This document shows, piece after piece, positions 5,864 to 51,009 of a stretch of 64,000 nucleotides of DNA. A program made the position numbers and the translations under genes. Within the stretch, counting starts at the first letter, position 1. Every line of letters starts with the position of its first letter. This DNA comes from an uncultured Candidatus Saccharibacteria bacterium (GTDB lineage Bacteria; Patescibacteriota; Minisyncoccia; Phycocordibacterales; JBBTRF01). Below the pieces are notes generated by a model. The model saw nothing but the letters and a program-made list of their open reading frames with translations. It was not told where the DNA came from and ran no database searches. Location of the stretch: contig CAZRTH010000001.1 in NCBI GenBank assembly GCA_964602975.1, positions 5,385 through 69,384 of the forward strand, written 5' to 3'.

Positions 5864-7762
5864 TCATAGCAAGCTGTCCGGATCGATCTTTATAGTCCAT
5901 CGTGGCGAAAGACCTTGAAAACGAGCCGTCATCTCGGGGTTCGGCCATTTATGTTTCGGAATTTTGATAAGCGCATGCAGGATTGAGGTGCCATTTTTGC
6001 CCTTCACAAAAGAAGGAAATACGTCCATTTCACAGTCGCCAAACAGTGCCTTCGCCTTGCCCATTTCTGCTACAATTTCATCCTTCTTTCCTTCAATGGA
6101 GAGCTTGATGAGTACATTGAAAGGCGGATAATGAAAAACCCTTCTCAGATCGATCTCGTTGCGATAGAAATCGAGAATGTTGCCTTTCAAGGCATATCCG
6201 AACAACGCTTGCTTTGGATCTCGCGTCTGCAAGAGCAGGGTCTTATGGGTGCAGGAACGGATGTGTAGCAAAATGCTCAACACCTTTTCGCTGATCTTGA
6301 AATCGGGGATCGAAAACAGGGAGTCGATCGACGCAACGGCGCTATTCTGAATGGGAGTGTCGAGATAGAGGAGTGCCATTTCTGTGCCGATCAAAATACT
6401 ACCGGGAGTTTCATAAAATTGGGCGGCGATCTTCGCGCCTTGTTTGTGTGTGGCGACAGAGTCTTTGTTCAGTGAAAAAATGTGCGCATCGGGGACGATC
6501 TTCCGAATCTCTTCCTCAATCTTTTCGGTACCCGCGCCGAGAGTGACCAGCTTCCAGCTATCACAATTAATGCAGCGCTCTTCCGCCGAGCGTCGCTCTC
6601 CGCATTTGTGGCAGAGGAAGAACGGGCCGTTCTTGGATGAGTGCAAAACCACCGGACTTTGACATTCGTTGCACGCCACGATCGTGCCGCAGTCGCCGCA
6701 GATGGTCGTGGGCGAGAGTCCTTTGCGCGCGACGAAGACAAACAGGTGTTCGTTGTTCTTTTGATTTGTCCGGATCAATTCTGCGAATTCGTCACTGATG
6801 ATCTGATATTTTTTTGCGATACCATTGGCCGGCGCTTCGGTCTTGTATCGGCGCAGGTCTGCGATCACTGCTTCGCAAGTGGTGAGAGAACGAAATTTGA
6901 TCGGATACAGCTCTTGGAATTCGCCATTTTGGTGTCGATATACGGTCTCGGTCTGAAGAAAGATATCACCAAATACGATCTTCGCTCGCAGCTGCTTTGC
7001 GAATTGCTCGGCAAAAGTGCGAATATCGAGGAAAGGCCGCTGTTGGATCTTGTACGTTCGAGAACTCTCTTTTTCGACGATGATTGCGCCAATATCTTTT
7101 CGAGGAAGTGAGAGGAATGGTCCCGTGGCGATGATGAGTACTGGGTGATCCGTGGCGAGGAGTCTGCGGCAGCGTTCCAGGATCTCTTTCTTGCTGAGAG
7201 AGCTGTGTAGTACAAACGTATATTCCTCGATGCCTTTCTCGAGACGTTTTACTGTCGCTTGGATATCGTGGAGCGTCGGCAAGCAGAAAAACACGGATCC
7301 CTTGCGAGCGAATGTTTCGCGTATCAGGCTTTTGTAATGGCCGAAGCGTTCTTCCTCATCGGTCTGTACAATGTATGCTTCATGTAATGGCGATTGTCGC
7401 CGATCCGAATGTCTGATGACCAGCGAGTCGGCTCCCTCAAGCAGGGCTTTCGGGATCATGGAATTGAGAACGGCTCCGGTAGTGGCGGCGAAATGCGCGC
7501 CGGCGCGTTTGGCGGTCTCGATGAATTCCGGCAAAAGGAAGGGCGCACCGGCGGCCGACAGCTTCTTCAATTCAAATGACGCCGACTTTATCTCCGACTT
7601 TAGATCCTCGGCTTTTTCGCAAGAGACGACAAGGCCGGCCACCGTGCGTTTGTTGATCGGCACTTGTACCACCGAACCCGGAGCGATCGGTTCGATGCTG
7701 AAATATGAGAGTGTCTCTCGTCCAAGGCCTTTGGAGAAGGGGATAACATGAAGTACCTGCAC
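5864..7762 (-). CDS. priA: primosomal protein N' (PriA helicase)
   Basis: 632 aa; Cys-cluster zinc-binding region CGDCGTIVACNECQSPV...CHKCG...CINC; DEAD/helicase layout. Confidence 0.85.
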   Translation of the reverse strand: MQVLHVIPFSKGLGRETLSYFSIEPIAPGSVVQVPINKRTVAGLVVSCEKAEDLKSEIKSASFELKKLSAAGAPFLLPEFIETAKRAGAHFAATTGAVLNSMIPKALLEGADSLVIRHSDRRQSPLHEAYIVQTDEEERFGHYKSLIRETFARKGSVFFCLPTLHDIQATVKRLEKGIEEYTFVLHSSLSKKEILERCRRLLATDHPVLIIATGPFLSLPRKDIGAIIVEKESSRTYKIQQRPFLDIRTFAEQFAKQLRAKIVFGDIFLQTETVYRHQNGEFQELYPIKFRSLTTCEAVIADLRRYKTEAPANGIAKKYQIISDEFAELIRTNQKNNEHLFVFVARKGLSPTTICGDCGTIVACNECQSPVVLHSSKNGPFFLCHKCGERRSAEERCINCDSWKLVTLGAGTEKIEEEIRKIVPDAHIFSLNKDSVATHKQGAKIAAQFYETPGSILIGTEMALLYLDTPIQNSAVASIDSLFSIPDFKISEKVLSILLHIRSCTHKTLLLQTRDPKQALFGYALKGNILDFYRNEIDLRRVFHYPPFNVLIKLSIEGKKDEIVAEMGKAKALFGDCEMDVFPSFVKGKNGTSILHALIKIPKHKWPNPEMTARFQGLSPRWTIKIDPDSLL

Positions 7763-12106: not shown

Positions 12107-12153
12107 TGCGGATTTGTCATACAAAAGTATGAGGAAAGTATGACAAATCCGCA
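12107..12153. repeat. palindromic intergenic repeat element, copy 1
   Basis: 15-bp arms gcggatttgtcatac / gtatgacaaatccgc around loop aaaagtatgaggaaa; related copies at 44259..44305 and 48728..48778. Confidence 0.8.
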
Positions 12154-42751: not shown

Positions 42752-44125
42752 TTAAAAGTCGTTCCCTCCGACAGCCGCACCGAAGTCCCCGAAATCAGAT
42801 TTTTCAATACTCTGGAATGTCGTCTTTTTGTCGTCGAAGTAGAGCTCCACAACACCAGTCGGACCATTTCGATGCTTCTCGATCATGATCTTCGCGATAT
42901 TTGGCCGGCCGGAATCTTTGTTGTACTTGTCTTCGCGATGGATGAACAAAACGATGTCCGCATCCTGCTCGATGCTTCCGGAATCGCGAAGGTCCGACAA
43001 CCGAGGCTCGCCACCGCGCTGCTCCACAGCTCGAGAGAGTTGGGAAAGAGCGATCACTGGCACCCTGAGTTCCTTGGCAAGCTGTTTTAGAGAGCGGGAG
43101 ATCTCGGTGGTTTGTTGGACGAGATTATCGTTGTTCTTGGTCTGTGTCGGGGTCATCAGCTGGAGGTAGTCGACGATGATGAGGCCGAGTCCTTTTTCTT
43201 TTTTCAGCTTGCGAGCTACCGAGCGCATCTTGAGAATATTGTTTCCAGCTTGGTCGTCGATATAGATCGGCGCACGGGAGAGGCGGTCCATCGCTTCGCG
43301 GAGACGGACAAAATCTTCTTCAGCAGCGATGCGGCCGTTGCGCAAGCTCCAAGAATCGATCTGAGACTCCGCAGACAACATACGATCCACGAGAGACTGT
43401 GCCGACATTTCGAGCGAGAAAATGGCGACAGCAGTGTTGTGATTGATCGCGGTCTTGCGAGCAAAATCGAGCGCCAACGATGTCTTACCCATCGAAGGTC
43501 GTGCTGCGAGGATGATCAGGTCGGATTCCTGAAAGCCGGAGAGCTTGTTGTCGAGCTCTCTAAAGCCGGTCGGCACACCGCGCAGTTCGCCTTTGTTGTG
43601 AGACAACTTGTCGAAGCGCTCCCAGGCTTCATTCAGTGTGTCTTTGATGGCCACCACTTTGTGGCCATTGTCAAAACTCGTCACTTCAAAGACCCGCTTT
43701 TCTGCTTTGTCGAGCAGTTCATTAATTTCCGATGATTCGTCGTATCCGAGGCCGGAGATGAATTCCGAAGCATCGATGAGTTGGCGCATCATGAATTTGT
43801 TCTTCACCGCAGTGCCGTAGTGGACAATGTTGGCGGAGGAGGGCACGGCGTTTGCGAGCTCGGCGATATAACTGGCGCCGCCCACTTGGTCGAGCTGGTT
43901 GTTCTCACGCAGGCGGGTGGTGAGGGTGAGCATGTCGATGGGCGTGTTCTTGGTGAAGAGCTCCATCATCGAGCGGAAGATGATGCGATGCTTTTCGGAA
44001 TAGAAGACGCGGTCGTTGATCGAGTCGTTGATCTCGTGCATCGCGTCGGAGCGGAGCATAATCGAACCGAGCAACGCTTTTTCAGCGTCGAGGTTCTGTG
44101 GAGGCACGCGAAGGTTTGTGGCCAT
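42752..44125 (-). CDS. dnaB: replicative DNA helicase DnaB
   Basis: 457 aa; Walker A ARPSMGKTSLAL; RecA-like C-domain; no intein. Confidence 0.9.
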   Translation of the reverse strand: MATNLRVPPQNLDAEKALLGSIMLRSDAMHEINDSINDRVFYSEKHRIIFRSMMELFTKNTPIDMLTLTTRLRENNQLDQVGGASYIAELANAVPSSANIVHYGTAVKNKFMMRQLIDASEFISGLGYDESSEINELLDKAEKRVFEVTSFDNGHKVVAIKDTLNEAWERFDKLSHNKGELRGVPTGFRELDNKLSGFQESDLIILAARPSMGKTSLALDFARKTAINHNTAVAIFSLEMSAQSLVDRMLSAESQIDSWSLRNGRIAAEEDFVRLREAMDRLSRAPIYIDDQAGNNILKMRSVARKLKKEKGLGLIIVDYLQLMTPTQTKNNDNLVQQTTEISRSLKQLAKELRVPVIALSQLSRAVEQRGGEPRLSDLRDSGSIEQDADIVLFIHREDKYNKDSGRPNIAKIMIEKHRNGPTGVVELYFDDKKTTFQSIEKSDFGDFGAAVGGNDF

Positions 44126-44258
44126 TGGGCTATTCTACCTTTTGGCGGTGGGGCAGGGCAATGGGCGATCGATAGGCAAAATGGAATAACGTGTGGAGAG
44201 GGTGGGGATAGGGTGGCGTGCCCATGGACAGGGGTGGCGCGCAGATAAAAAGAGTAGG

Positions 44259-44305
44259 TACGGATTTGTCATACTTTCCTCATACTTTCGTATGACAAAT
44301 CCGTA
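44259..44305. repeat. palindromic intergenic repeat element, copy 2 (inverted relative to copy 1)
   Basis: cggatttgtcatac-tttcctcatactttc-gtatgacaaatccg; the loop is the reverse complement of the copy 1 loop. Confidence 0.8.
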
Positions 44306-44365
44306 GGTACTCCAAAATGCCGGCAGACACCCCCCGCAGCTTAAAAAACAGCTTAATATATAGCA

Positions 44366-46882: not shown

Positions 46883-48133
46883 ATGAAATCATTTTCCGCA
46901 TTTGCGAAAAGCCGGCTCGCGCTCGGACTGTATATTGTGGTGGTGCTCGCCGCTGTGTTCAGTGCCGGCGTTTTGGCGGGGTACACCGACCGACCCGAGG
47001 TGTCGAAGATCAGCGGGCTTTTGAATTCCCGGAACGAGATCTCCGATAAGACTGACTTTGAGGCTTTCTGGCGGGCGTGGCGTATTTTGAACGAGAAGCA
47101 TGTCTCGGCAAAAGAGATCGCTCCTCAAGAGAAGGTGTGGGGTGCGATCTCAGGTCTCGCCAGCTCTTTCAAAGACCCATACACGGTCTTTATGCCTCCT
47201 GTACAGACGAAGGATTTTGACAGCCAAGTGAGCGGCAACTTCGGCGGAGTCGGCATGGAAATCGGCATCAAAGACAATGTAGTGACTGTCATTTCGCCTC
47301 TCAAAGGCAGCCCTGCGGAAAAGGCGGGGATCCGTAGCGGCGACAAGGTGTTGAAGATCGGTGACAAGATCACTTCGGGAATGTCTGTGGAAGAAGCTGT
47401 ACATCTTATCCGCGGCGAAGTCGGTACCGATGTCAGATTGATGTTGTTCCGAGAGGGTCGCAAGACGCCATTTGAGGTGGTCGTCACTCGCAATGTAATC
47501 CAGATACCGACCATTGATACAGAGAAGCGTGCCGATGGCATCTTCGTCATCCGCCTATACAACTTTTCTGCTCCTTCGGCAGGCCTGTTTCGGGGTGCTT
47601 TGCAGGAGTTCATTCAATCTGGTTTCAACAAACTGATCCTCGACTTGCGTGGTAATCCGGGCGGCTATCTTGATGCCGCTGCCGACATGGCGAGCTGGTT
47701 TCTGCCAAAGGGTGCCGTAATCGTCCGTGAGAACTATGGCGACAAGCAGGTGGAAGATACCTTGCGAAGCGCTGGCTATGATGTCTTTGCCGACCGGCCT
47801 CTCCACATGGTGATACTGGTGAACGGCGGTTCAGCTTCTGCTTCCGAGATCCTCGCCGGCGCGCTCGCCGAGCATGGCGTGGCGAAATTGGTAGGAACCA
47901 AGACTTTCGGCAAGGGTTCAGTGCAAGAATTGATCAAACTCACCCCGGACACCAACTTGAAGGTGACGATCGCCAAGTGGTACACACCGAACGGCGTCTC
48001 CATCTCCGATATGGGTATCACGCCGGACTATATAGTTGACATGACAGAGCAGGATGTGAATAATCTAAAGGATCCACAGATGGACAAGGCGGTGCAAGTA
48101 GTGCTTGGCAAGGTGCCGGCGAAGAAGAAATAA
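46883..48133 (+). CDS. ctpA: carboxy-terminal processing protease (S41 family, PDZ-containing)
   Basis: PDZ GGVGMEIG...; S41 core LDLRGNPGG; signal anchor. Confidence 0.85.
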   Translation: MKSFSAFAKSRLALGLYIVVVLAAVFSAGVLAGYTDRPEVSKISGLLNSRNEISDKTDFEAFWRAWRILNEKHVSAKEIAPQEKVWGAISGLASSFKDPYTVFMPPVQTKDFDSQVSGNFGGVGMEIGIKDNVVTVISPLKGSPAEKAGIRSGDKVLKIGDKITSGMSVEEAVHLIRGEVGTDVRLMLFREGRKTPFEVVVTRNVIQIPTIDTEKRADGIFVIRLYNFSAPSAGLFRGALQEFIQSGFNKLILDLRGNPGGYLDAAADMASWFLPKGAVIVRENYGDKQVEDTLRSAGYDVFADRPLHMVILVNGGSASASEILAGALAEHGVAKLVGTKTFGKGSVQELIKLTPDTNLKVTIAKWYTPNGVSISDMGITPDYIVDMTEQDVNNLKDPQMDKAVQVVLGKVPAKKK

Positions 48134-48195
48134 GGCTAAAATGAATCGGAATTTTCGAAGAAAAAACTTTAATCCACTTTAAAACCTAAAATCTC

Positions 48196-48636
48196 ATGAA
48201 AGTCGTATTACTGAAAGACGTACCGAAGCTCGGCAAGAAATTCGATATCAAAAATGTCGCTGACGGCCACGCGCTGAACAGTTTGATTCCGCAGGGGTTG
48301 GCCGCTGTTGCCACCGATGGCGTGGTGAAGCGCATTGAGGCTGAGAAGGCTGTCTTGGAGGAGAAACGCAAGAAGGAGGAAGCTGAGCTCGCAAAGAATC
48401 TCGATGCGGTGAAGGCGCTGCAGCTCACGATTGTTGCGAAGGCAAATCCAAAAGGCCATTTGTTTTCGGCGATCCACAAGGCGGATATCGCTACCGAGAT
48501 CCGCAAAGCCGGCATCGCCATTGGCGCCGACTTCATTTCTCTCGATAAACCGATCAAGGAAGTAGGTGAACACACTATCGAGGTAGTAGCAGGAGGGAAG
48601 TCTGCGAGATGTAAGTTGAATGTAGTTGCGGCGTAA
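48196..48636 (+). CDS. rplI: 50S ribosomal protein L9
   Basis: MKVVLLKDVPKLGKKFDIKNVADGHALN...; 146 aa. Confidence 0.9.
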   Translation: MKVVLLKDVPKLGKKFDIKNVADGHALNSLIPQGLAAVATDGVVKRIEAEKAVLEEKRKKEEAELAKNLDAVKALQLTIVAKANPKGHLFSAIHKADIATEIRKAGIAIGADFISLDKPIKEVGEHTIEVVAGGKSARCKLNVVAA

Positions 48637-48727
48637 GTAACGGAGTAAATAGTGAATGAGAGACGCAACAGGAAGGTAGGAGGCGCCGAGCTATAGTAGG
48701 GAGAGTGTCCGCCGACATTTTCAGGTA

Positions 48728-48778
48728 CCCGCGGATTTTGCATACGAAAGTATGAAGAAAGTATGCAAAATCCGCGGG
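48728..48778. repeat. palindromic intergenic repeat element, copy 3 (variant arms ...ttttgcatac)
   Basis: cccgcggattttgcatac-gaaagtatgaagaaa-gtatgcaaaatccgcggg; same loop motif as copy 1; downstream ccccgcagctt shared with copy 2. Confidence 0.75.
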
Positions 48779-48829
48779 GTCGAAAAAACCCCGCAGCTTG
48801 TGCGTGGTTTTTAGCGCTGTTTTTACCCC

Positions 48830-49135
48830 TCAGGCTTTTAGAAAGTTCCCCTTCCTGAGGACTTCGGTGACATCGTTATCAATGTGGGGAAGGGCCTCTT
48901 CATTCGTTAGCTCGAGGGCATCCATCCCTAAACTTACTGACGACAATGGTGCTCCGGTGCCGAGCGTTGACCGTTGCACATCCCAAGGTGCTTTCATGAT
49001 GGCTGCTACTGATTCGGGAAATTCCCTCATCCCCTCAACCCTCAAAAAGATATCTGCGTTGGGAAGTTGCACGTAGTTGTGGCCCAAGACGAAAAGCGTC
49101 CCGAGCGGAATGTCTCTGACAGTAGTTGCTTTCAT
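48830..49135 (-). CDS. hypothetical small protein downstream of the AAA ATPase
   Basis: About 101 aa from MKATTVRDIPLGTLFVLGHNY...; no domain; co-oriented 66-130 bp after the ATPase gene. Confidence 0.35.
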   Translation of the reverse strand: MKATTVRDIPLGTLFVLGHNYVQLPNADIFLRVEGMREFPESVAAIMKAPWDVQRSTLGTGAPLSSVSLGMDALELTNEEALPHIDNDVTEVLRKGNFLKA

Positions 49136-49263
49136 AAGGTGCCGTTTCGTGAGTTCTGAACGTTGCTGGTTGGCTGTGTTTGTTGGAGAGCCTAGCACAT
49201 TCTAAGAAAAAATAAAAGACCCTTTTGAAGGCTCTCTCTAAAGGCGATGGTCCGAGGGAAGCC

Positions 49264-50037
49264 TCAGTCTTTAAATAGTCGATTTAGGTACTGGGGTGGA
49301 TTGTCCAAGAATGACTTGGTGATCTGATACTGCTTTGTTTCTTCGTAACTCACATTTTCTAGTTTTTTGCCATCGCAGGAGTAAATTGTCGAATTCGGGT
49401 AAGCAAGAAGAATAGGCGAGTGTGTGGCAATAATGAATTGAGACTCTGGATTACGACATATCTCATTAATAATAACCAGCAAGGCAAGTTGCCGTTGCGG
49501 AGATAGTGCAGCTTCCGGCTCGTCAAATAGGTAAAATCCTCCGCCGCCTATCCTGTTCTTAAAGAACGACAAAAAACTTTCCCCGTGTGATTGTTCATGG
49601 AGAGATTTTCCTCCGTATGGAGCGTAGGTAAGATATCTTTGTCCCGGCTGTTTTGACGTCTCGTCGATAAAGTTTGCGACATTAAAAAAACTTTCCGCTC
49701 GAAAGAAGTAGCCGTCACGAGGCTTTTTCCTCCACGAAAGCGTCATGCTCGAAGCAAGTTGTTCGGTTTGAGAATAGAAAGTATCATCAGCCGTAGTGAA
49801 GCTGATATTCTTGCTGCCACCCTCTTTTCCAAAACCAGTTCGTGAAGCTATTGCTTCAAGAATCGTGGATTTACCTGTTCCGTTTTCACCCACAAAAAAT
49901 GTAACCTGTGTCGGAAATGTAATGTCCGTCAAGTTCTTTACGATCTCCAGAGAAAAAGGGTACTTTGAAAAATCGAGTTTACTATCCTTCGCGAGGCTGA
50001 CTTTCACCTTGTCTAATATAGGTCCGTCTAATTTCAT
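49264..50037 (-). CDS. stand-alone ABC/SMC-type P-loop ATPase (AAA_21-like, 257 aa)
   Basis: Walker A GENGTGKST, signature-like SHGESF, Walker B FYLFDEPEAALSP, H-loop IIATHSP; gene about 42% GC versus about 51% background. Confidence 0.7.
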   Translation of the reverse strand: MKLDGPILDKVKVSLAKDSKLDFSKYPFSLEIVKNLTDITFPTQVTFFVGENGTGKSTILEAIASRTGFGKEGGSKNISFTTADDTFYSQTEQLASSMTLSWRKKPRDGYFFRAESFFNVANFIDETSKQPGQRYLTYAPYGGKSLHEQSHGESFLSFFKNRIGGGGFYLFDEPEAALSPQRQLALLVIINEICRNPESQFIIATHSPILLAYPNSTIYSCDGKKLENVSYEETKQYQITKSFLDNPPQYLNRLFKD

Positions 50038-50148
50038 AAGAGATATAGTTTATGGTATCACAAAACAAAATTCCCGACCCGAGAGCGTGTGCCGAGTAGG
50101 GAGTTTTGTCTTTTCTGTTTTTAGCTTTCCGCCTTTCTCTTTCTTTAG

Positions 50149-50421
50149 CTAGATAACATTCGCCACCTTCTTCACTGTGTTGCTGCCATCGAAATTCACT
50201 TTGCGCTTGTTTGAGAAAGACACTTTTCCTTCCTTGATCGCAAAAATAGTGTGGTCTTTTCCAGTGTCGACGCCTTTGCCTGCAAGGATCTTGGTGCCAC
50301 GCTGTCGAACGATGATCGAACCGATAGAAGCTTTTTCACCAGCAAAAAGCTTGATACCGAGGTATTTTGGGTTCGAATCTCTGAGGTTTTTGGCCGCACC
50401 GCCGGCCTTTTTGGTTGCCAT
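50149..50421 (-). CDS. rpmA: 50S ribosomal protein L27
   Basis: [24 protein letters not shown]...; 90 aa. Confidence 0.9.
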
Positions 50422-50544
50422 AGTCTTTTATATCGTTATGTAATTTAGATTCAGAGTATACCGAAATTAGTGGAAAAAGGCAAGAAGCCTTCAAAATAAG
50501 GGTTTTTGCGGAATCAGCGTGTCATTTTAGTGCCCTGTGCCAAT

Positions 50545-51009
50545 TTAGCGCGCCATTCGGCAAATCTCCTCGAAATGTTTCTCGAGTAGTGGCTGAACGG
50601 AGAGCCGACTACCTGTTTGAGTCAATGGAATACCCTTGAGCTTCGAATTCGCTTTGATGAGCGAGATCGATACCGGCTGGACAAATTTCTCAACAAAAGC
50701 CATATCCACCTGCATCCAAATCGGATTCTCTTCGCTAGACTTCGGGTCGTAGTGGTCGTCTTTTGGATTCAGCGCGGTCGCATCTGGATACGCTGCACTC
50801 GCCACCCTCGCCACGCCAACAGCCGATGGCGGATTGGTGCTGGAATGATAGAAGATCACCAGATCGCCGACCTGCATGCTGTCGCGCATGAAATTCCGCG
50901 CTTGATAGTTGCGCACGCCTCCCCAAGCTGTCTTTTGATCCTGCTTCAAATCGTCGATCGAGTAACAGCTCGGCTCGCTCTTTATCAGCCAGTATTTTTT
51001 GAGATTCAT
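50545..51009 (-). CDS. EVE (PUA-like) domain protein
   Basis: KYWLIKSEPSCYSIDDL...WGGVRNYQARNFMRDSMQVGDLVIFYHS matches the EVE-domain consensus. Confidence 0.75.
   Translation of the reverse strand: MNLKKYWLIKSEPSCYSIDDLKQDQKTAWGGVRNYQARNFMRDSMQVGDLVIFYHSSTNPPSAVGVARVASAAYPDATALNPKDDHYDPKSSEENPIWMQVDMAFVEKFVQPVSISLIKANSKLKGIPLTQTGSRLSVQPLLEKHFEEICRMAR

Follow-up and report, generated by a model that had tools for sequence, protein, structure and literature searches.

Among the characterised proteins closest to the ATPase described here are PtuA (of Septu and retron systems), AriA (PARIS), GajA (Gabija) and OLD, which belong to the same branch of the ABC-ATPase superfamily and share with it a similar P-loop and a Walker B/D-loop/H-loop block that can be written as DEPExxLxP...THSP. 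At 450-650 aa these proteins are larger, their two lobes being separated by a helical or coiled-coil insertion, and they work with a nuclease, either a fused Toprim domain or the product of an adjacent gene (PtuB, AriB, GajB); the present ATPase, at 257 aa, has neither the insertion nor the nuclease. The heads of SMC, Rad50 and RecF proteins bear a coiled coil at the position where it has a short, low-confidence loop (residues 124-153), and it has no kleisin-like or Mre11-like partner. ABCE1/Rli1 and the ABC-F proteins are, like it, soluble ABC ATPases without a permease, and ABCE1 gives a match at the nucleotide-binding motifs (E ~6e-8), but they are tandem proteins, whereas the ATPase has one nucleotide-binding domain (though natural tandem fusions occur in its family); FeS domain, linker and P-site tRNA-interaction motif are all lacking.

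The family to which it does belong was already known before this study. It comprises solitary proteins of 240-265 aa, named "predicted ATPase", that are monocistronic and partner-less, have full-length homology to the ATPase at 47-77% identity with the same invariant motifs, and differ from it in nothing substantive. The family is possibly COG3910, an assignment that the JGI name "predicted ATPase" allows without being specific to it. COG3910 was found in one paper, which does no more than list it among ABC-like COGs that are not transporters, and our search turned up no characterisation of, or experiment on, this solitary family.

The gene lies between the convergent genes rplI and rpmA in the window (the whole stretch of DNA analysed, 64,000 nucleotides); the genome is Patescibacteria-like and poor in accessory genes. 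The features of the locus are:

48196..48636, plus strand: rplI (ribosomal protein L9), with Pfam Ribosomal_L9_N and Ribosomal_L9_C, convergent with rpmA
48728..48778, no strand: palindromic repeat copy 3, between rplI and the small ORF, with a 15-nt loop
48772..48796, minus strand: terminator-like hairpin 3' of the small ORF, 10 pairs (7 of them G-C), then a T-rich tail
48830..49135, minus strand: small ORF, 101 aa, acidic (pI 5.0), lineage-restricted
49136..49263, minus strand: spacer from the ATPase stop to the small-ORF start, homologous to the relatives' rpmA-to-small-ORF spacer
49225..50149, no strand: genome-specific block of 925 bp, comprising the 111-nt spacer upstream of the ATPase gene, the gene itself and a few bases beyond its stop
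49264..50037, minus strand: ATPase gene, 257 aa, ABC/SMC-head-type, AAA_15/AAA_21 group
50038..50148, minus strand: spacer from the rpmA stop to the ATPase start, 111 nt
50149..50421, minus strand: rpmA (ribosomal protein L27), Pfam Ribosomal_L27 (E 1.8e-29), the upstream flank of the insertion

The ATPase and its family

The first-pass annotation, made from the sequence before any database search, had described a stand-alone, minimal ABC/SMC-type ATPase of 257 aa, and the ORF, Pfam, motif positions and structural matches bear this out. Walker A (GENGTGKST, residues 50-58), a signature-like motif (SHGESF, 150-155; SHGES, 150-154), Walker B (FYLFDEP, 168-174) with the catalytic Glu within DEPE (172-175), the D-loop and the H-loop (ATHSP, 204-208) are all conserved, as expected of the ABC superfamily. 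Pfam AAA_15 (55.5 bits, cutoff 32.1) and AAA_21 (54.2 bits, cutoff 27) each align in two stretches, one N-terminal and one C-terminal, with ~90 residues between the lobes. SMC_N (36.8 bits) stays under its cutoff of 40, as does ABC_tran (23.1 bits under the 25-bit cutoff, and over residues 42-67 alone), and Pfam finds no nuclease domain. The fold is that of an ABC/SMC head, with SMC heads as the best structural matches; the AF2 model has a pLDDT of 78, falling below 50 in residues 124-153, which run into the signature motif. The protein keeps every catalytic motif; what its characterised relatives have in addition (a coiled-coil or dimerisation insert, a nuclease domain, a permease partner) is missing.

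Resemblance to defence proteins is at the level of motifs. PADLOC matches the ATPase to its AriA, mad3, GajA and PtuA models (E 1e-16 to 1e-10), with the best stretches at residues 159-212 or 37-65 only; coverage by defence models amounts to ~30 N-terminal and ~55 C-terminal residues, namely the P-loop and Walker B/H-loop segments, and no PADLOC model matches over the full length. The NCBIfam scores are 46 bits for PtuA (cutoff 500) and 26.7 for MAD3 (cutoff 420). Profile matches to the PDB are likewise limited to two motif blocks, in chains of 456-552 aa, where the second block begins near residue 380 as against residue 155 in the ATPase. With OLD, too, the match is motif-level only, and neither a nuclease domain nor a nuclease partner is present, so the defence role first suggested for the locus is not upheld. 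The Pfam label of AAA_21, "putative AbiEii toxin", invites over-interpretation here.

Full-length alignment, length and invariant residues all place the protein in the solitary ~250-aa family. More than 8000 clusters at 90% identity were matched, along with 425 clusters at 50% identity with E <= 1e-30, nearly all of 235-270 aa, and at least 562 relatives were confirmed in species-representative genomes. Bacillota, Actinomycetota, Pseudomonadota, Myxococcota, Chloroflexota and Methanococcoides are represented among the matches listed. Against 120 listed members the ATPase aligns with 97-100% coverage and 64-77% identity; among Patescibacteria and Babeliales identity is 65-77%, and it drops to ~50% with Firmicutes, Proteobacteria and one archaeon. 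Alignment of 30 diverse members from many phyla leaves 53 invariant columns, and G50, K56, S57, T58, S150, H151, G152, E153, D172, E173, P174, E175 and H206 are the same in all 30. The family motifs can be written as GENGxGKST, FxRxE, YGGxSLHxxSHGESF, DEPExxLSPxRQ and ATHSP, plus C-terminal Y-x2-T and FL. The Patescibacteria/Babeliales subclade, which includes the window copy, is marked by ~10 extra residues at the N-terminus and by five residues inserted after position 84.

The only domain fusions in the family are self-tandems: two proteins (P0134, 590 aa, and P0136, 544 aa) join two complete copies, with the motifs intact in each half. Member names are all generic ("AAA family ATPase" or "predicted ATPase" at NCBI and JGI). 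Across 79 loci from many phyla, a given neighbouring family is seen five times at most, and among 121 adjacent ORFs twice at most. The genes adjoining the homologues have, in their great majority, metabolic or housekeeping roles. In none of the 79 loci does a relative of the small ORF lie beside a homologue, and the 121 adjacent ORFs show no recurrent mobile or defence Pfam family. PADLOC, run on the immediately flanking (±1) ORFs of up to 450 aa (n = 121), matched 20 models in one ORF each, as raw counts. Family members turn up in plasmids (57 records) and phages (4 records); this patchy, transferable distribution is also what would be expected of a conflict gene. The family, very large, strongly conserved and partner-less, is a reasonable target for biochemistry.

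The rplI-rpmA interval in the window and its relatives

Comparison by blastn with the closest syntenic relative (L001) shows synteny up to 50150 that resumes at 49224; this is the sole break, and L001 has 94 bp in place of the 925-bp block. The boundary is likewise at 50150 in comparisons with L092/L093 and L094. Gene order in L001 is DUF2157, EVE, rpmA, the 101-aa ORF, rplI, S41 and CorA, with no ATPase, and L003 also carries the small ORF without the ATPase, behind an upstream spacer of the relative type. In L092/L093, L094 and L095, rplI and rpmA are directly adjacent, with spacers of 257, 117 and 3 nt, respectively, and neither gene between them. The ATPase is missing at this site in every relative examined (the comparison covers the site, and copies may exist elsewhere), and is an accessory gene. 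By the identities of five proteins, the window falls outside the group (L001,(L093,L094)), and therefore the small ORF is shared by descent while the ATPase is unique to the window.

The block interrupts a structured, terminator-like element that is intact in relatives. Downstream of the ATPase, the spacer at 49136..49263 aligns with the relatives' spacer at a local score of 86, where shuffled sequences score 15.5 ± 2.2. Of their terminator-like element it retains the 3' half, T-run included; it also has a TAGAAT -10-like box and a leader of ~60 nt, the leader being near-identical in L001 and L003. Upstream, the spacer at 50038..50148 contains a terminator-like hairpin (50084-50072), then a T-run, then an AT-rich stretch before the ATPase ATG, with an RNA fold z-score of -2.9. 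Local alignment finds no homology between this spacer and that of L001 (the score was reached by 40 of 500 shuffles), nor does comparison of the upstream with the downstream spacer reveal flanking sequence common to both sides of the ATPase, such as a target-site duplication (177 of 500 shuffles). The ATPase and the small ORF share a strand, and the 128 nt that separate them contain the T-run relic of the ancestral terminator and the conserved promoter-like box and leader; from these elements we infer that the small ORF is probably transcribed separately from the ATPase.

Composition also separates the two genes. The ATPase gene is compositionally foreign: its GC content is 42.4% (42.2% at third codon positions), while the 70 window ORFs of at least 100 aa have 52.3 ± 3.5% (60.3 ± 7.6% at third positions), and it ranks 70th of 70 in GC. 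The small ORF has 51.0% GC (55.9% at third positions), so the "AT-rich" label that the first-pass annotation gave to the pair fits the ATPase gene only. The nearest homologues of the ATPase (69-77% identity) sit in genomic flanks of 28-46% GC and in differing housekeeping contexts, and blastn against their loci gives similarity confined to the coding region, with no sign of co-transferred flanks.

The small ORF, which had been listed as 122 aa with a GTG start (48830-49198), has a conserved product of 101 aa starting from the ATG at 49135. Its lack of any recognisable domain was noted early and holds up: there is no match in Pfam, NCBIfam, PADLOC or PHROGs, and no fold match. A search of 5.8 billion clusters gave just two homologues, both of 101 aa, with identities of 73% and 71%, and both come from close relatives; a scan of metagenome contigs confirmed no further ones. 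The dN/dS of 0.23 against L001 points to purifying selection. An ORF of 101 aa in L094 was considered as a relative and rejected as unrelated, and when the L092 and L094 spacers were searched by tblastn for remnants of the small ORF, there were none. The small ORF is a resident gene older than the ATPase insertion, and not a partner of the ATPase.

Origin and function of the ATPase

We consider it probable that two unrelated genes of different age lie between rplI and rpmA, the ATPase being the later arrival, a recently transferred single gene of a widespread solitary family and a putative ATP clamp. The 101-aa ORF, older and lineage-restricted, would have been present already, with a promoter-like region and a conserved leader to itself. 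The ATPase gene would then have been acquired horizontally, as a single gene from a lower-GC donor, and inserted into the structured terminator-like element downstream of rpmA. The locus records stepwise gene gain at the convergent rplI/rpmA junction. The juxtaposition could also have made a new functional link between the ATPase and the small ORF, though nothing indicates one.

As to mechanism, analogy with ABC ATPases and the natural tandem fusions suggest that a dimer is the working unit. The ATPase may be a soluble homodimer in which Walker A of one head and SHGES of the other sandwich two ATP; hydrolysis would reopen the dimer, and this clamp cycle would act on a conserved cellular ligand. 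Identity stays at ~50% from Firmicutes to archaea despite frequent transfer, from which we infer a universal target (nucleic acid, ribosome or nucleotide) rather than a fast-evolving phage component.

There is an outside chance that the whole solitary family has a single undiscovered function of the bare, ATP-driven dimerising head. It might, for instance, be a portable factor that guards or rescues a universally conserved machine (ribosome, tRNA or DNA end), or else a one-gene conflict element. Such a reading draws on a highly conserved family that is found in bacteria by the thousand, and in some archaea too, and that has been repeatedly transferred as a single gene; if it is true, the window and its syntenic relatives form a natural gain-of-gene pair for testing function.

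Could the ATPase gene be a conflict system all of its own, acting without a partner against phages or plasmids, in abortive infection, or as a selfish, addictive element? Its accessory status and horizontal transfer would suit this, as would the plasmid and phage records in the family, the kinship to the AAA_15/AAA_21 clade, rich in conflict systems, and the MmeI-type methylase and resolvase that lie ~3.5 kb from the homologue in L004. We think it unlikely, however: there is no effector domain and self-tandems are the sole fusions, neighbours are mostly metabolic or housekeeping (a handful of the 121 match PADLOC models, as a raw count), no PADLOC model is matched full-length, and the identities given above, 65-77% within Patescibacteria and Babeliales and ~50% beyond, would be unusual for defence genes.

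It is very unlikely that the ATPase is instead ancestral to this ribosomal-protein neighbourhood, with a translation-linked housekeeping role, and was deleted in relatives. The window is the outlier of four genomes, and within that set a single loss explains the pattern no less economically than a single gain; the outgroup L095, however, has rplI and rpmA 3 nt apart. In other Patescibacteria, homologues do at times have translation genes in their vicinity (RluD and L19 in L004, LepA in L086), but such genes are dense in these small genomes, so occasional proximity is expected, and the homologues' positions differ in every genome examined. Nor does loss fit an ATPase gene whose GC and third-position GC are not host-like, whose upstream spacer has no homology to relatives, and which sits within an element intact in those relatives.

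Still less probably, the protein serves an ABC transporter as its nucleotide-binding subunit, orphaned from a permease gene at some other locus. NCBIfam does return weak matches to transporter ATPases, but ABC_tran remains below its cutoff, the signature is SHGES and not LSGGQ, the Walker B and D-loop sequence (DEPEAALSP) is of the AAA_15/21 type, and the best structural matches are SMC heads. No permease recurs beside the homologues: ABC2-type membrane proteins account for 1 of 121 adjacent ORFs each, and none lies beside the window gene.

Weakest, and already largely refuted, is the two-gene defence or toxin-antitoxin-like module first proposed for this locus, in which the ATPase would sense infection and the small protein would be effector or antitoxin (compare PARIS AriA/AriB, Septu PtuA/PtuB and Gabija): the shared strand with a 128-nt gap, the AriA, mad3, GajA and PtuA matches and a small protein with no known domain all invite it, but L001 and L003 have the small ORF and no ATPase, the GC of the small ORF resembles that of the backbone and its upstream region is conserved and its own, the two genes differ in composition, the ATPase occurs without the small ORF and without a conserved partner in all of the at least 79 other loci, two homologues from close relatives stand against an ATPase family of thousands, and the defence matches cover the two short motif segments only. 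Same-strand adjacency and an AAA_21 match are not, by themselves, enough to call a defence module.

Flanking gene order and repeat

The gene upstream of rpmA in the window is an EVE-domain gene, not rplU, and the same holds in L001, L092/L093 and L094; in the more distant L095, rplU is also not beside rpmA. The arrangement is therefore ancestral, unrelated to the ATPase insertion. In the window rpmA is indeed apart from rplU, as had been remarked, but its "displacement" is not an effect of the insertion, since relatives show the same.

Rfam gave no match at E <= 1 for positions 48000-51000, and sub-threshold, implausible matches only for the L092 spacer. On the rplI side, repeat detection and alignment confirm the palindromic repeat copy that had been reported to flank the pair. 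Copy 3 has perfect 18-nt arms (48728-48745 and 48761-48778) and is absent at the equivalent position in L001; its sister copies in the window lie at 12107-12153 and 44252-44312.

Two genes at the junction of rplI and rpmA

The ATPase gene and the small ORF lying between the convergent rplI and rpmA genes, which the first-pass annotation had read as one AT-rich, defence-like module, were inserted independently of each other at a junction that is permissive.

Features of the junction (window coordinates)
48196-48636, plus strand: rplI
48830-49135, minus strand: small ORF downstream of the ATPase gene, conserved product of 101 aa, start codon ATG at 49135
49136-49263: relic of a Y-shaped structured element
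49264-50037, minus strand: ATPase ORF, 257 aa
50149-50421, minus strand: rpmA
50545-51009, minus strand: EVE-domain protein gene (Pfam E 1.4e-53)

A second ORF on the ATPase strand, 3' of the ATPase, was confirmed; its mechanical call is 122 aa with a GTG start. It had no match in Pfam, NCBIfam, PADLOC or PHROGs, and only two homologues were found among 5.8 billion clusters, each of 101 aa (73% and 71% identity). One is on L001, a 356-kb contig and the closest syntenic relative, where the gene order is that of the window: DUF2157, EVE, rpmA, the 101-aa ORF, rplI (convergent), S41 peptidase, CorA, CysRS and DnaB. The ATPase is absent from this otherwise matching order. By blastn the two are collinear at about 72-76% identity except for one block, where 925 bp of the window (49225-50149) stand against 94 bp of L001. 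The 128 nt from the ATPase stop to the small ORF are clearly homologous to the L001 spacer (local score 86 vs 15.5 ± 2.2 shuffled), and the locus of the second small-ORF homologue, L003, has an L001-type spacer 5' of the small ORF; local alignment against shuffles gave no clear homology to the L001 spacer for the 111 nt 5' of the ATPase. The label of an AT-rich gene pair holds for the ATPase gene (42.4% GC, 42.2% at third codon positions, the lowest of the 70 window ORFs, whose means are 52.3 ± 3.5% and 60.3 ± 7.6%), but not for the small ORF (51.0%, third positions 55.9%). Occurrence of the small ORF without the ATPase in L001, together with the differing ATPase spacers and GC, speaks against a single module.

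Deeper relatives were retrieved through the S41 peptidase. In L092/L093 and L094, which have the whole neighbourhood in common with the window, rplI directly adjoins rpmA (spacers of 257 and 117 nt), and in the more distant L095 the gap is 3 nt. Both the ATPase and the small ORF are absent from these loci, and tblastn shows no relic of either. Divergence from L001 gives a dN/dS of 0.23 for the small ORF (rpmA 0.12, rplI 0.06, S41 0.08); since this indicates purifying selection, the small ORF is a real, resident gene. Judged by the identities of five flanking proteins, the window falls outside the group (L001,(L093,L094)), so the small ORF dates back to the split of the window from L001 or further. 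The ATPase occupies the junction in the window lineage only, and because of the outgroup and the foreign composition of the ATPase gene, its gain is a better reading than its loss elsewhere.

The structured element at the insertion site

The junction spacer of L001, L092 and L094 forms a Y-shaped element, about 115 nt long, with two conserved inner hairpins and closed by an outer stem of an A-run and a T-run (MFE -51 to -68 kcal/mol, z-score near -8). No Rfam family matched this element, which probably is either a terminator working in both directions or a small mobile palindrome.

Positions of the Y-shaped element
L001, 7819-7935
L092, 6760-6875
L094, 6745-6861, opposite orientation
window, 49136-49263, relic

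In the window, the element's 3' half and T-run start right after the ATPase stop codon, so the ATPase gene sits inside the element. Neither a target-site duplication nor a co-transferred flank was found around the ATPase. A terminator-like hairpin with a T-run lies 3' of rpmA at 50084-50072, and the ATPase is followed by the relic of the T-run, by a TAGAAT box and by a leader (about 60 nt) near-identical in L001 and L003; from these we infer that the ATPase and small ORF form separate transcription units.

The leader, ...AACGTTCAGAACTCACGAAAC[A/G]GCACCTT-ATG (window 49136-49200, minus strand; L001 7935-8000; L003 90-155), is near-identical in the three genomes vs about 75% identity for coding DNA. 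It has no obvious Shine-Dalgarno sequence, and may be a regulatory RNA element.

A solitary ATPase family

All the motifs named from the sequence are present in the ATPase: GENGTGKST (residues 50-58), SHGESF (150-155), FYLFDEP (168-174) and ATHSP (204-208). Pfam scores pass the thresholds for AAA_15 (55.5 bits vs 32.1) and AAA_21 (54.2 vs 27) and fall slightly under those for SMC_N and ABC_tran. It consists of a complete ABC ATPase head, with no coiled coil, nuclease or permease, and is one of a family of solitary ATPases, about 250 aa long, in the AAA_15/AAA_21 branch. This family is already known, solely under the generic source names 'AAA family ATPase' and 'predicted ATPase', and the window copy is an additional member. 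At 90% identity, more than 8000 clusters matched; the members listed have 97-100% query coverage, 64-77% identity and 250-280 aa. Searched exhaustively with HMMER, 1.84 billion representatives gave 425 clusters (50% identity) at E <= 1e-30, almost all of 235-270 aa, and species-representative genomes hold at least 562 confirmed relatives. Those listed come from Patescibacteria, Babeliales, Bacillota, Actinomycetota, Pseudomonadota, Myxococcota, Chloroflexota, Verrucomicrobiota and the archaeon Methanococcoides, with identity of about 47-52% beyond the first two among matches listed; 57 plasmid records and 4 phage records also carry members of the family. The catalytic residues and a C-terminal helix motif are invariant in 30 diverse members. 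Longer members are self-tandems or carry domain-free extensions, and none has an effector fusion.

The closest homologues have different surroundings in each genome: between PilM-like genes and RluD plus L19 (L004), among NUDIX, GNAT and Ham1 genes (L005), after LepA, an ABC exporter and glutaredoxin (L086), before PurD (L087), near Fpg and a Mur ligase (L088), and on a 35%-GC contig (L096). When the neighbours of the ATPase at 79 loci were clustered, three genes to either side, no neighbour family recurred in more than five loci, and those few were generic. Of the 121 ORFs directly next to the ATPase, at most two shared any Pfam family, and the 20 PADLOC models matched had one ORF each.

A conflict role for the solitary ATPase gene alone is unlikely. 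The protein does match AriA, mad3, GajA and PtuA in PADLOC, PtuA and MAD3 in NCBIfam, and solved PtuA, AriA and OLD structures, but these matches are confined to two blocks, the P-loop and the Walker B/H-loop, and score far under curated cutoffs. With motif blocks only, no partner and no recurrent defence neighbours, the proposed defence role is not supported, and no test here favoured a conflict role. The window ATPase lacks those defining features of PARIS, Septu, Gabija and OLD that were tested, and likewise those of ABC transporter subunits. By the general ABC ATPase mechanism, the solitary ATPase would homodimerize head-to-head in an ATP-dependent manner and be reset by hydrolysis, a minimal nucleotide-driven clamp. 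High conservation despite frequent transfer suggests that its ligand is a universal one.

Natural tandem fusions of two complete copies occur (P0134, 590 aa; P0136, 544 aa), each half with intact Walker A, SHGES, DEPE and THSP; one example is from a Methylacidiphilales MAG.

Repeats and accessory genes of the neighbourhood

The palindromic repeat reported beside the small ORF is real, with two sister copies in the window.

Intergenic palindromic repeat (window coordinates)
12107-12153, copy 1
44252-44312, copy 2
48728-48778, copy 3

Its arms are about 16-23 nt (core CGGATTTGTCATAC), separated by exactly 15 nt in every copy, and the loop sequence is reverse-complemented in copy 2 relative to copies 1 and 3. 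Copy 3 (MFE -47 kcal/mol, z -6.9) is absent at the equivalent L001 position. The EVE gene lies immediately 5' of rpmA, at the usual place of rplU, and this is conserved in L001, L092/L093 and L094. In L095 a gene for a PemK-family toxin (5924-6319) is found close to the junction of rplI and rpmA, which suggests that accessory genes are tolerated here in other lineages as well. The DnaB proteins of L001 (12737-15418) and L094 (443-3142), with lengths of 893-899 aa, contain an intein with a LAGLIDADG endonuclease; the window ORF at the syntenic DnaB position (457 aa; 42752-44125, minus strand) and the 457-aa DnaB of L092 (541-1914) are intein-free, a presence/absence polymorphism of the intein within the clade.
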